A stretch of DNA of 63,698 bases, taken from Candidatus Daviesbacteria bacterium. GTDB taxonomy: Bacteria; Patescibacteriota; Microgenomatia; Daviesbacterales; UBA10151. The notes below the pieces were generated by a model. The model saw only the letters and a program-made list of their open reading frames with translations, made no database searches and was not told the origin of the DNA. The position numbers and the translations under genes are program-made. This document shows, piece after piece, positions 13,453 through 44,261 of the stretch (position 1 is its first letter; each line of letters begins with the position of its first letter). Location of the stretch: contig JAUSHE010000024.1 of NCBI GenBank assembly GCA_030648435.1, forward strand, positions 1-63,698, read 5' to 3'.

Positions 13453-14475
13453 TTAAGTTACGAGTGCAAGGTTTGGATCAGCTTGAAGAGACAAAGGATT
13501 TTTAAGGGCTTTTTGGAAAAAGGCTGCAGAGGCTATCATGGCTCCGTTATCTGTACAAAGTTCCGGTGGTGGTACAAAGAGTCTGATAGCTGAAGACTGA
13601 CAGCTGACAGCTAATTCTGAAACCAGTTTCTGATTGGCGGCCACTCCGCCGGCGACTATTAAGTTTTTAACCTGATATTTTTCAACCGCTTGAATACTTT
13701 TTTTAACCAGAACATCAACAATAGCTTGTTGAATTGAAGCAGCAAGGTCAGCGACCTTACTTTTATCTGTTATATTAGCTACTGCTGTTTTTAAACCTGA
13801 AAAAGAGAAGTCAAAATCTTTGGAATTTATCATTGGTCTGGGTAATTTAAAAGCTTTTGGGTTACCCTCTTGTGCTAGTTTGGAAATAATAGGACCACCA
13901 GGGTAGGGCAGTCCCAGGAGCCTGGCGCATTTATCAAAGCATTCTCCTGCCGCATCATCCCGGGTTCCGCCCAGATATTTATATTTACCATGATCTGTAA
14001 ACAGAACTAAATCCGTATGCCCACCGGAAACAAGCAGGCCAATACAAGGGAAGCTCGGTACACCTTCCAGGTGGGCTTTGACTCCTGGAAGGTGAGTGGG
14101 AGTAATCCAATTAGCATAAAAATGTCCAAGCAGGTGATTAACTGGGATTAGTGGTTTATTCCAGATTAATGCCAGGGTTTTGGCAGTTTCTACCCCCACT
14201 AAAAGTGAACCTATTAGTCCGGGTCCATAGGTGACTGCAATAGCGTCAATTTCCTGTTGCCTGTGGCCTGAAGCCTGTAAACTTTCTTCTATCACCGGAA
14301 TGATTGATTTTATCTGTTCCCGTGCCGCCTGTTCAGGAATTATCCCTCCGTATTTAGCCTGCAGCAAGGCTGATGAAGCCACAATATTGGATAATATCGT
14401 TATTCGTTTATCGTTATTCGTCAAGATAGCGCAAGCTGTTTCATCGCAGGATGTTTCTATTCCCAGAATAATCAT
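13453..14475 (-). CDS. tsaD: tRNA N6-adenosine threonylcarbamoyltransferase TsaD
   Basis: GIETSCDETA, GPGLIGSLLVG, LLVSGGHT, CTDNGAMIA. Confidence 0.95.
   Translation of the reverse strand: MIILGIETSCDETACAILTNNDKRITILSNIVASSALLQAKYGGIIPEQAAREQIKSIIPVIEESLQASGHRQQEIDAIAVTYGPGLIGSLLVGVETAKTLALIWNKPLIPVNHLLGHFYANWITPTHLPGVKAHLEGVPSFPCIGLLVSGGHTDLVLFTDHGKYKYLGGTRDDAAGECFDKCARLLGLPYPGGPIISKLAQEGNPKAFKLPRPMINSKDFDFSFSGLKTAVANITDKSKVADLAASIQQAIVDVLVKKSIQAVEKYQVKNLIVAGGVAANQKLVSELAVSCQSSAIRLFVPPPELCTDNGAMIASAAFFQKALKNPLSLQADPNLALVT
13583..13617. repeat. heptamer patch (5 units) inside tsaD
   Basis: CTGATAG CTGAAGA CTGACAG CTGACAG CTAATTC. Confidence 0.6.
14061..14094. repeat. family-A 34-nt perfect hairpin element, copy 1 (inside tsaD)
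   Basis: CACCTTCCAGG TGGGCTTTGACT CCTGGAAGGTG; 11-bp stem, 12-nt loop. Confidence 0.9.
14395..14422. repeat. heptamer/14-mer patch inside the tsaD 5' region
   Basis: TATCGTT ATTCGTT TATCGTT ATTCGTC. Shares the 10-mer TCGTTTATCG with 18645-18654 and the reverse complement of 18752-18761. Confidence 0.6.
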
Positions 14476-21846: not shown

Positions 21847-22164
21847 ATGTTTAAAATTATCACTTTTGTGCCGGTTACTGATGCAGAGAAAGTAAGGATG
21901 GCTATGGGGGATGCAGGGGCAGGAGTTTTGGGAAATTACACCCATGCCAGCTTTTCTACCAAGGGTGTGGGAAGGTTTATTCCGAGTGAAGGAGCCCATC
22001 CTACGATTGGTCAAGTGGGGAAATTAGAAGAAGTAGAAGAAGAAAGGATTGAAGTAATTTGTGAGAAAGAAAATGTAACAGCTGTGGTGACAGCAATTAA
22101 AAAAGTCCATCCCTACGAAGAGGTTCCCCTGGAAATATATAATTTAGTTGAGGTCCCAAGGTAA
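21847..22164 (+). CDS. NIF3/YqfO-insert-like (PII-fold) small protein
   Basis: Pattern FVPVTDAEKVRMAMGDAGAG..GNYTHASF...G..HPTIG...EEERIEV recalls the YqfO cap domain. Confidence 0.45.
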   Translation: MFKIITFVPVTDAEKVRMAMGDAGAGVLGNYTHASFSTKGVGRFIPSEGAHPTIGQVGKLEEVEEERIEVICEKENVTAVVTAIKKVHPYEEVPLEIYNLVEVPR

Positions 22165-23064
22165 GTTAATCAGTTGGACTTCGGGGACAAGGGTGATGTC
22201 GTATTTTTCTTTGACTTTCTCTGCGTAAGTTTTAGCCAAATCATAAAAATCTTTGGCAGTCCCATTATCTTTATTTATAAATAAGTTGCCATGAATAGGT
22301 GAAATTTCTATGCCATTTAAAGATTGCCCTTTGGCTCCTACCTCTTCCAGCAATGCTCCGGCAGAAAGTTTGCCGTAGACAATTTTTTCTTGGGGGATAT
22401 TATTCAAGATTTCTTCCGGAATTTCAGAAGCAATTAAATTTTTGAAAAAACTACCCGGGCATTTAATTCCCGGGGGATATCTAACAGCTCTTTTAGATAA
22501 TACTTCTTCTGCTTCTTTTTTGAGTATGTCAGGATCACCTGGTTCCAGTTGAAAAGTTACTTCTAAGATAGGTTGCTTGGATTGTTTAAAAATGCTGTTT
22601 CTGTAACCAAAAGCACATCCAGACTTGTTTAATTGATCAACGGATACAATATGATCGGAAATTGATTGGCCATAAGCTCCGGCATTGCCATAAACTGCCC
22701 CTCCAACAGTACCGGGAATTCCGGTTAGTTTTTGTAATCCGGAAAGTCCATTTTGAATGGTGTAGTCAACAAGGTTTTGTAAAAGAGTTCCACTCTTAAC
22801 GCACACCTCGAAGGAGTCAGGGCCCACCTTCGAGGTGGACAAATCACAAATCTCATTTTTTATAACTAAGCCTTCGAATCCGTCATCACTGATTAATAAA
22901 TTACTACCTCCACCGATAATTAAATACGGCATCTGTTGGGATTTGGCATATTCTAATGCTTCTATTAACTCTTCCTCGGAAGATACAATTACAAACTTTT
23001 TAGCCGGCCCGCCTATAGATAATGTAGTTATTGTTTTTAACAAATAATTATCTTCAAATTGCAT
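22144..23064 (-). CDS. murB: UDP-N-acetylenolpyruvoylglucosamine reductase
   Basis: FAD-binding IIGGGSNLLISD, GIPGTVGGAVYGNAGAYG, SFFKN. Confidence 0.9.
   Translation of the reverse strand: MQFEDNYLLKTITTLSIGGPAKKFVIVSSEEELIEALEYAKSQQMPYLIIGGGSNLLISDDGFEGLVIKNEICDLSTSKVGPDSFEVCVKSGTLLQNLVDYTIQNGLSGLQKLTGIPGTVGGAVYGNAGAYGQSISDHIVSVDQLNKSGCAFGYRNSIFKQSKQPILEVTFQLEPGDPDILKKEAEEVLSKRAVRYPPGIKCPGSFFKNLIASEIPEEILNNIPQEKIVYGKLSAGALLEEVGAKGQSLNGIEISPIHGNLFINKDNGTAKDFYDLAKTYAEKVKEKYDITLVPEVQLINLPWDLN
22804..22837. repeat. family-A hairpin element, copy 2 (inside murB, loop inverted)
   Basis: CACCTCGAAGG AGTCAGGGCCCA CCTTCGAGGTG. Confidence 0.9.
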
Positions 23065-42896: not shown

Positions 42897-43526
42897 ATGC
42901 AAAAGGGTACTGCCCAACTTTTATTGCTTCTTACAGTAGTGCTTCTTCTTGGGGTAGGTGTATATTTTTACAAGACTTCAAAAGAAAATGATTTACAAAC
43001 TGCGAAATTAACTGTCCAAAAACCATCAGAATTTATTGACTATGTAAATAAAGATTTTGGCTTTGAATTTAAGTATTCAAAGGAGTTGCAAGTGAAGGTT
43101 GATACAGAAGAAGAATTCAATAAACGGAGTAATGGGAATTTTAGGAAGAATTTTACAGGTTATGTAGGTTATGAACCGGGGCAGGTTTTAGGGGCAGTGG
43201 CAGTTTTAGACCAAAGCGGCTCTTTTGATAATAATCCTTTTTCTGTCTGGGTATTTGATAACCCTGATGGTTTAACAGTTAATGGTTGGTTTGATAAATA
43301 TTGGTATTACCCATTTTTATGGGGAGTATTTGACTATTTGTCAAAAAGTCACATTACTCCTGATACAGAAGCTACAATTAGCGGACAACTAACAAAATAT
43401 AAAATTGTTTCCTACCAACTAAGTTCCCCAAAATATCTTTATTTATCAAAAGAGAAGAAGATGTATTTATTTAGAGTTATCGGAGAGACCGGGGACAAAA
43501 TTTTATCCGGCTTTAAATTTCTATAA
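42897..43526 (+). CDS. hypothetical exported protein
   Basis: Signal/TM AQLLLLLTVVLLLGVGVYF. Aromatic-rich body. Confidence 0.4.
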   Translation: MQKGTAQLLLLLTVVLLLGVGVYFYKTSKENDLQTAKLTVQKPSEFIDYVNKDFGFEFKYSKELQVKVDTEEEFNKRSNGNFRKNFTGYVGYEPGQVLGAVAVLDQSGSFDNNPFSVWVFDNPDGLTVNGWFDKYWYYPFLWGVFDYLSKSHITPDTEATISGQLTKYKIVSYQLSSPKYLYLSKEKKMYLFRVIGETGDKILSGFKFL

Positions 43527-44261
43527 TAAATAAATATCTACAAATCTTGCGCTCCAGCCGGCGGTCTTGGCATCTTCAAAGCCCAGATCAATGATATTTC
43601 CTTTAATTGCTCCGCCAGTATCTCCGGCAATAGCCATGCCATATCCGGGTACATAAAGTTTGGTTCTATATTTAATAACTTTTGGATCAACAGCTATCAC
43701 ACCTTTGCCTTGTCTCATGCCGATCGAAGTCCACTCATCGCAGCCGGGACAGCGTGAATCATAGTGGGTGGCATAAACCCGCATCTTCTTCCAGTATTTA
43801 ATCTCGCCGTCAGGGGTTTGTAGGGTTTTCCAGACAATTTTTGTACCCCGTAAAATCTTTTTATCTTGGGCCGGAGTTGTTTCAACAGAAATAAGTTCTC
43901 TGGAATATTCTTCACCTTGGCTCACCTCGGAGGTGGGCTTTGACTCCTCCGAGGTGGTTGCCGGTTTGGAGTAGGTTATTTTATAAATCTTAATTTTTTT
44001 GCCGTCTGTTCCTTCTTCCAAGACTTTTTCTTCTCCTGCTTCTACCTCCGGATCATCCTGATAAATTGTTTTTCTTGGTAAACTTTCTATTTCTTCCCGG
44101 AGTTTTTCGGTAAACGAGGACTCGGTAGTAATAGGTTGGTTAATAGGTAATGTTTCTGTTGGAGAAAGCGTGGAATCACCTAAAACAGTAGGAGCCTGAA
44201 AGATACTTTTGGCAAAGAAAGTAAGCGCTATTATTAAGATAATCCCAAGATATTTTTCCAT
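43521..44261 (-). CDS. G5 + 3D-domain (MltA/RlpA-like barrel) cell-wall protein
   Basis: G5-like EEGTDGKKIKIYKITY. 3D-domain ATHYDSRCPGC...IAVDPKVIKYRTKLYVPGYGMAIAGDTGGAIKG. Confidence 0.7.
   Translation of the reverse strand: MEKYLGIILIIALTFFAKSIFQAPTVLGDSTLSPTETLPINQPITTESSFTEKLREEIESLPRKTIYQDDPEVEAGEEKVLEEGTDGKKIKIYKITYSKPATTSEESKPTSEVSQGEEYSRELISVETTPAQDKKILRGTKIVWKTLQTPDGEIKYWKKMRVYATHYDSRCPGCDEWTSIGMRQGKGVIAVDPKVIKYRTKLYVPGYGMAIAGDTGGAIKGNIIDLGFEDAKTAGWSARFVDIYLL
43923..43956. repeat. family-A hairpin element, copy 3 (inside the 3D-domain gene)
   Basis: CACCTCGGAGG TGGGCTTTGACT CCTCCGAGGTG. Confidence 0.9.

Follow-up and report, generated by a model that had tools for sequence, protein, structure and literature searches.

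A palindromic repeat translated within murB of a Candidatus Daviesbacteria genome: a probable REP/REPIN-type element linked to RAYT-like genes

The window analysed here is a 63,698-nt stretch of a Candidatus Daviesbacteria genome and is contig C29 of a 784-kb assembly with 48 contigs and 38% GC. Its murB gene contains a 34-nt hairpin at 22804-22837, CACCTCGAAGG-AGTCAGGGCCCA-CCTTCGAGGTG, with an 11-bp stem and a 12-nt loop (Table 1). The arms are complementary at 11/11 positions, in agreement with the perfect stem claimed in a preliminary description of this DNA. The hairpin is one of three window copies of an element termed family A, and the other two lie in tsaD and in a gene for a G5/3D-domain protein. 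On the murB-sense strand the loop, TGGGCCCTGACT, differs from the family consensus TGGGCTTTGACT in having CC in place of TT. Comparison of AGTCAGGGCCCA with AGTCAAAGCCCA also confirms that the loop is the reverse complement of the loops in copies 1 and 3 save for 2 nt.

Table 1. Positions in the window of the murB hairpin, its host gene and related repeats.
Feature	Position	Strand	Remarks
murB (UDP-N-acetylenolpyruvoylglucosamine reductase, 306 aa)	22144..23064	-	Pfam FAD_binding_4 and MurB_C; PDB matches 4pyt and 1mbb
Hairpin arm CACCTCGAAGG (plus-strand letters)	22804..22814	-	11/11 complementary to 22827-22837
Hairpin loop	22815..22826	-	Minus (murB-sense) strand reads TGGGCCCTGACT
Other hairpin arm CCTTCGAGGTG (plus-strand letters)	22827..22837	-	Pairs with 22804..22814
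Family-A copy 1, in tsaD (13453..14475, minus strand)	14061..14094	+	Read as HLPGVKAHLEGV
Family-A copy 3, in G5/3D-domain gene (43521..44261, minus strand)	43923..43956	+	Read as TTSEESKPTSEV
Intergenic repeat of the RAYT-flanking type, AGGTG-TAGCTTCATTC-CCACCTCCGAGGTGG	57880..57911	+	Same build as the 51 flanking repeats

None of 100 dinucleotide shuffles of the window yields such a palindrome, which argues against a chance coding feature, and the pattern CACCT-N3-AGG-N12-CCT-N3-AGGTG has three window matches (14061, 22804 and 43923) against 0.01 expected. The hairpin is predicted to fold at -12 kcal/mol as single-stranded DNA (z = -3.9) and at -23 kcal/mol as RNA (z = -3.4). Rfam gives no match at gathering thresholds anywhere in the window, and the hairpin falls in no curated structured-RNA family. 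The stem ends, invariant in all copies (e.g. 22827-22837), read AGGTG/GGAGGTG, which resembles a Shine-Dalgarno sequence, and CACCT/CACCTCC at the opposite end, which is identical to the anti-Shine-Dalgarno end of 16S rRNA. The two ends would mask each other in the folded hairpin.

A genome-wide pattern search, as proposed in the preliminary description, recovers 15 copies of CACCT-N4-GG / TGGGCTTTGACT / CC-N4-AGGTG in the 784 kb, including the three in the window. All 15 have perfect 11-bp stems, which comprise six compensated stem variants. Among the 12 distinct copies, 132/132 pair cells are Watson-Crick and four pairs covary, with 15 double changes and zero single changes; the absence of G-U pairs from the stems holds for this genome only. 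There is no target-site duplication and no conserved flank around the 15 copies.

Fourteen of these 15 copies lie in frame inside long ORFs. The host proteins include TsaD, MurB, the G5/3D-domain protein, release factor RF-1, HMG-CoA reductase, a GHMP kinase, a pseudouridine synthase, a ChlI/ComM-like ATPase and an ATP-grasp ligase. Three reading phases occur, giving HLEGVKAHLPGV, SPGRSQSPPSRW and TSEESKPTSEV, and the murB copy alone in this genome carries the loop TGGGCYYTGACT on the sense strand. The claim that the murB copy is read in a different frame holds against copy 1 (phase 0) and fails against copy 3, which shares its stem phase. Copy 3 reads TSE...SEV and the murB copy TSK...FEV, and only the loop comes from the other strand. 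A bias in orientation was considered, as 13/14 genic copies here carry an antisense loop, where stop codons would predict 3:2 (binomial p about 0.008). The bias disappeared in wider samples, at 18:11 and then 58:30, and was dropped.

A covariance model of the hairpin was searched in 96 genomes of the same bacterial family and matched in 59, from 38 of 63 genera. Matches per genome range from 0 to 46, with wide and patchy variation inside the genus. Across the class, 21/301 genomes match, with all non-singleton matches in two families and single matches in three others. The loci fetched supplied 94 distinct copies, a pool in which low-scoring copies were deliberately enriched and in which 71 stems are nonetheless perfect. 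Among 58 distinct sequences from relatives there are 87 double changes and 97% of cells are paired, a percentage (not the covariation) biased by a filter of at least 8/11 pairs. A pair inside the nominal loop, at positions 13 and 22, covaries from G-C to A-T in three sequences. One genome (G008, C2:108660-111791, locus L156) has at least two family-A copies with the same CTCCT stem-end variant in a single 885-aa ORF, with a third covariance-model match nearby at 111058; this arrangement points to spread through duplication, within the ORF, of a repeated protein segment.

Translation of the element is general in the pooled set, where 88/94 copies (94%) lie in frame inside ORFs of at least 120 aa. 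Family A is read in five of the six frames across unrelated genes, and no copy occupies the orientation-phase combination that contains a stop codon. The loop has the same orientation as the gene in 30 copies and the opposite in 58, near the 2:3 ratio expected if only the stop-containing frame is forbidden. The configuration found in murB is tied with one other as the commonest among the 88 genic copies. Among same-orientation copies, phase 2 (TSxVGFDSxEV, as in murB) is found more often than phase 1, at 28:2, which shows that selection acts on the encoded peptide. These observations bear on a reading in which the 34 nt go untranslated, being cut out of the mRNA or jumped by the ribosome in the manner of mitochondrial byp elements. 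A stable GC-rich hairpin in a 38% GC genome does bear a superficial likeness to byp elements and mitochondrial GC clusters. The host frame is nevertheless open and continuous across the element in 14/14 genic copies here and 88/94 overall, and a skipped element would escape both the ban on the stop-containing combination and the peptide-level selection seen in the phase skew, so that bypass is highly improbable.

In MurB, the element encodes residues 76-87, STSKVGPDSFEV, of the 306-aa protein, in accord with the earlier statement that it is translated there. An AlphaFold2 model of the protein has a mean pLDDT of 92.9 and a pTM of 0.87. Residues 75-81 and 84-90 are modelled as the two strands of a beta-hairpin at pLDDT 96-97, and the segment is therefore predicted to be a regular beta-hairpin rather than a disordered loop. 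Solved MurB structures carry a beta-hairpin of similar length at this site, e.g. IEIHDEPDAWYLHV in E. coli.

MurB sequences from 23 genomes of the genus and family were aligned. Nine orthologues have only a short turn of 4-6 residues, e.g. GIVQNGTEITVKSG, with no trace of the STSKVGPDSFEV peptide. The same element in the same orientation, with stem CGAA, is present in this genome, in G013 and G006, and in G102 from another genus. In three orthologues, a family-A element occupies this same nucleotide position and phase and has other stems and its loop flipped; one of these loops holds 24 additional nt. A different hairpin made from the same 13-mers (described below) occurs in another phase in four orthologues, a doublet of 13-mer-like palindromes in one, and a solo 13-mer palindrome in three. 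The presence of several kinds of insert at one place makes the MurB site a hot spot with at least two independent occupations. In the orthologue with extra sequence (G007, locus L012), the nested 24 nt give AGTC-TCCCTCGACTTCGCTCGGGACAAG-AAAGCCCA with the frame kept and may be a nested insertion.

Because palindrome-less MurBs lack the peptide, STSKVGPDSFEV is not a conserved MurB protein motif. The preliminary description had argued for a structure-constrained element rather than a peptide motif, and had named conservation of the peptide in palindrome-less orthologues as the finding that would count against it. The nine orthologues without the peptide, the reading of the element in several frames and the Watson-Crick covariation of the stems all uphold that argument. 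A conserved motif would accord with the high-confidence, regular beta-hairpin of the model. It is contradicted by those nine orthologues, by the different hairpins that others carry at the same place and by the reading of the same DNA in other frames in unrelated proteins; such a motif, or a chance palindrome, is therefore extremely improbable.

A second MurB loop (alignment columns 201-270) has unrelated inserts of 15-60 residues in five relatives (G013, G017, G018, G006 and G019), e.g. VIPAKAGIYTNNLYGSRIKYG, with CPESDSG...LTRMT in two genomes. These inserts look like other translated repeat families. About 10 residues are missing at this loop in the MurB of this genome and of G010.

Each hairpin arm together with two loop bases forms the 13-mer CACCYNNNRGGTG, of which the arm itself holds 11/13 bases. 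The genome contains 45 CACCNNNNNGGTG 13-mers, where about 4 would be expected, and these form several hairpin families. Three genes of this genome match Pfam Y1_Tnp, as do genes in 18/19 genomes of the genus. One of the three (C2:12407-13084) has HUH (MPNHFH) and tyrosine (SRYIHLNP) motifs and is flanked by 13-mers at -53 and +29. Its homologues across the family (n = 30, 52-100% identity) are flanked in 29/30 cases, by 51 repeats in all. The flanking repeat is AGGTG-(T/C)CAAGCTAat-CCACCYNNNRGGTGG and occurs as inverted pairs, about 55 nt upstream and 25-45 nt downstream. Its spacer GTCAAGCTAATC is similar to AGTCAAAGCC, the opposite-strand reading of the family-A loop, and family A may be a compact derivative of this repeat. 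The 34-nt family-A form itself was found beside no RAYT gene, and the link consists of the shared 13-mer and the similar spacer.

The protein encoded by the C2 gene is RAYT-like. It scores 34 bits against Pfam Y1_Tnp (cut-off 23), and its sole NCBIfam match, REP_Tyr_transpos, reaches 43 bits, below the cut-off of 80; a PDB sequence search with it gave no match. Across the family, genomes bearing and lacking the hairpin number 56 and 25 where a RAYT-like gene is present and 3 and 12 where it is absent (Fisher p = 8e-4, ignoring phylogeny). The number of hairpins also rises with the number of RAYT-like genes (Spearman rho 0.52, again without phylogenetic correction). Within this assembly (92.6% complete), no RAYT-flanking repeat matches the CGA stem variant of the murB copy. 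Because its arms contain the 13-mer core of the repeat that flanks 29/30 RAYT-like genes, the murB hairpin is probably, at roughly 70%, one copy of a REP/REPIN-type miniature palindromic repeat, linked to RAYT-like genes and surviving inside genes.

Several other features of these genes and repeats were observed. The two other Y1_Tnp genes of this genome carry their own, different hairpins: TTCCCACT-cgtca-AGTGGGAA is found before, inside and after one (C25:26306-27007), and TGCAAGG-cgtcc-CCTTGCA just after the other (C12:22053-22793). Family-wide, RAYT-like paralogues are unusually many for genomes of this small size, reaching 12 in one of 1 Mb. Their flanking 13-mers differ between paralogues in the central NNN (TCC/GGA, CGA/TCG, GGG/CCC, CGG/CCG), which suggests paralogue-specific repeats. 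The intergenic repeat of the window (Table 1) lies between ORFs 57231..57881 and 57930..58463 with no RAYT gene adjoining.

The site of copy 3 in the G5/3D gene is empty in 12 genus members (Y-SKDG-EEY) and filled at one position in 10 relatives. The filled alleles show both loop orientations between identical stems, TSE-ESKP-TSEV and TSE-VGFD-SSEV, and the ten include at least six stem variants and eight perfect stems. MurB likewise has either loop orientation at the same nucleotide position and phase among relatives, and the flip is also present in a 700-aa protein. In a perfect palindrome, inversion of the loop and inversion of the whole element give identical sequences. Given the identical position and phase in both orientations, the opposite orientation of the murB copy is best explained as an in-place loop flip at an inherited site, and is therefore weak evidence of a separate insertion. 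The preliminary description was right that the orientation is opposite, and its interpretation is supported, with the refinement that opposite orientation need not stand for an independent insertion, as both loops occur at one site. The case for mobility is indirect and draws on the patchy occurrence of the element and on its connection with RAYT genes; the alleles and copies compared include no transposition event.

At both the MurB and the G5/3D site, filled alleles replace a few codons and are not plain additions of 34-36 nt. Filled G5/3D alleles share extra flanking codons across genera, and the nearest relative, G010, is empty; together these hint at allele exchange or incomplete sorting. 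Protein trees of MurB and of the G5/3D protein, built for counts of gain, loss and flip, were both star-like, with moderate support only for pairing this genome (G000) with G010, which is empty at both sites.

The codon-replacing alleles and the flips in place would also suit local origin or renewal of copies by template-switch or gene conversion on short palindromes, with the RAYT association incidental. So would the loop change GGGCTT to GGGCCC, which turns a quasi-palindrome into a perfect one and recurs in unrelated copies, and hairpin-templated correction could make perfect stems. Such a process cannot account for an identical 12-nt loop and stem ends that recur across dozens of unrelated genes and two bacterial families. 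It also leaves aside the core 13-mer at fixed distances from 29/30 RAYT-like genes and the correlation of hairpin counts with RAYT-like gene counts, and local renewal is accordingly quite improbable.

Under the REP/REPIN-type reading, a RAYT-like enzyme would recognise and cut the hairpin on single-stranded DNA and spread its copies, a role suggested by the sequence relationships above. In a gene-dense 0.8-Mb genome, the surviving copies would be those that are in frame, free of stops and accommodated by surface hairpins or linkers tolerant of insertion, and they would be translated there. For MurB, the 34 nt with 2 flanking nt would supply 12 residues, modelled as a beta-hairpin where other MurBs have one. 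A resident copy would then be inherited, with its mid-stem bases changing only in compensated pairs. The loop could flip in place through the hairpin as a minute inversion, the likely source of the opposite orientation of the murB copy.

The conservation of resident copies counts against this reading. In the MurB genes of four species, the 12 element codons are identical at 32-36/36 nt. The rest of the same genes is 66-69% identical, and fourfold sites, at 0.32-0.42 identity, are saturated. Nucleotide conservation in MurB ends exactly at the hairpin ends. A selfish insert is expected to decay once resident, and its decay at saturated divergence fails to explain the 32-36/36 identity, which remains unexplained. 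Homogenisation to a genome-specific master copy is not supported, as stem and loop variants of family A track the locus and not the genome, with CGAA in all four same-orientation MurB copies. Hairpin-templated repair could keep the stems paired and could not keep the loop constant. The options that remain are host-level selection, a maintenance process specific to hairpins, or repeated precise re-insertion.

One form of host-level selection would be purifying selection on a nucleic-acid role of the hairpin, either as an mRNA pause or processing structure or as a protein-bound DNA landmark. This explanation draws on the near-identity of the element codons in four species, one from another genus, on the sharp limits of that conservation, on stem variants that follow the locus and on the predicted stability of the RNA hairpin (-23 kcal/mol). 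Single mismatches in genic copies, counted on the sense strand, also lean towards G.T over A.C (14 vs 6, or 11 vs 3 without the terminal pair). As a test between RNA- and DNA-level selection the mismatch types were set aside, since 14:6 is not significant and is confounded by strand-biased mutation, such as C-to-T change. Many close relatives lack the element at the same sites, Rfam finds no family in the window, and the loop is kept in both orientations at numbers near the stop-codon expectation. A sequence-specific function of an RNA loop is unlikely because conservation of the loop is seen at the DNA level whichever way it faces relative to transcription, and a host nucleic-acid role as a whole is unlikely too.

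A tentative and rather unlikely proposal is that the hairpins, far from being passive debris, are long-lived residents actively kept intact at inherited intragenic sites, by host selection on the DNA hairpin or by RAYT-dependent proofreading of hairpins that the enzyme recognises. If so, compensated pair changes would accumulate in the mid-stem, and the loop could turn over in place, with no other change in the loop or the stem ends. The elements would then supply ready-made beta-hairpin or linker modules to essential CPR proteins.

REP and REPIN systems with RAYT (TnpA_REP) genes are reportedly the subject of work by Nunvar in 2010, Bertels and Rainey in 2011 and Ton-Hoang in 2012. Family A resembles them as a short palindromic repeat in many dispersed copies (here 34 nt, with 15 copies in 784 kb), as do the Y1/HUH transposase-like gene flanked by an inverted repeat pair (here with a 13-mer core) and the coexistence in one genome of several repeat families, each paired with a separate Y1 gene. 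Doublets that fold into longer hairpins and a patchy presence among close relatives are further likenesses. Unlike those repeats, family A is 94% intragenic and translated rather than extragenic, and it has no GTAG or CGTC tag, ending instead in CACCT and AGGTG with flanks that are not conserved. Family-A copies number in the tens and not the hundreds, with up to 12 RAYT-like paralogues per 1-Mb genome; the protein falls under the NCBIfam RAYT cut-off, and the family-A hairpin is not the flanking repeat itself. Among the hits listed by a literature search, none connects RAYT or REPIN with CPR bacteria. Classification as a MITE does not fit, as there is no target-site duplication at the 15 copies, the alleles replace codons and no parent IS was seen.

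A review of REP/RAYT systems (PMC3733652) also covers intragenic REPs and the Rickettsia palindromic elements (RPE; Ogata 2000, cited therein), which lie in frame in proteins that still function. Xanthomonas recB orthologues carry different REPs at about the same site (PMC3733652). The present elements are similar as in-frame palindromes that are translated, with different repeats at about the same orthologous site, and similarity in sequence is not expected. They differ in lineage (Patescibacteria/CPR) and in that intragenic placement is the rule here, whereas RPE-1 is longer and, in those genomes, most members of the repeat family are intergenic and few lie in genes.

Minute inversions at hairpin loops are said to have been described in chloroplast non-coding DNA by Kelchner and Wendel in 1996, and template-switch mutation at quasi-palindromes is reportedly due to Ripley in 1982. 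As in minute inversions, the loop here flips between unchanged perfect inverted repeats, at two orthologous sites. Unlike those of chloroplasts, the flip lies within coding sequence and exchanges four residues, VG[FP]D for ESKP, with the frame intact. Mitochondrial genes of Nematomorpha contain translated coding palindromes with perfect inverted repeats; these differ in being up to 284 bp long, mitochondrial and without a reported link to a transposase (PMC6649704).

REP/RAYT repeats are usually described as extragenic; in these bacteria there is almost no intergenic space, and repeats of this kind live almost entirely in genes, including that of the cell-wall enzyme MurB, and are translated. 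They amount to a natural collection of 12-residue insertions that essential proteins tolerate, and offer a case of a protein segment altered by inversion of a DNA loop. The conservation puzzle bears on whether hosts maintain REPINs as partners or carry them as parasites, and hairpins of this type can introduce errors into the alignments, gene trees and annotation of CPR genomes. Translated, in-frame intragenic REPs and RPEs have already been described, and the present system is distinct in being almost wholly intragenic, without a tag, low in copy number and rich in RAYT-like paralogues. To these known systems, the present analysis adds the evidence for loop flips at orthologous sites, the refutation of an orientation bias, the placement of the element in the MurB structure and the measurement of its conservation.
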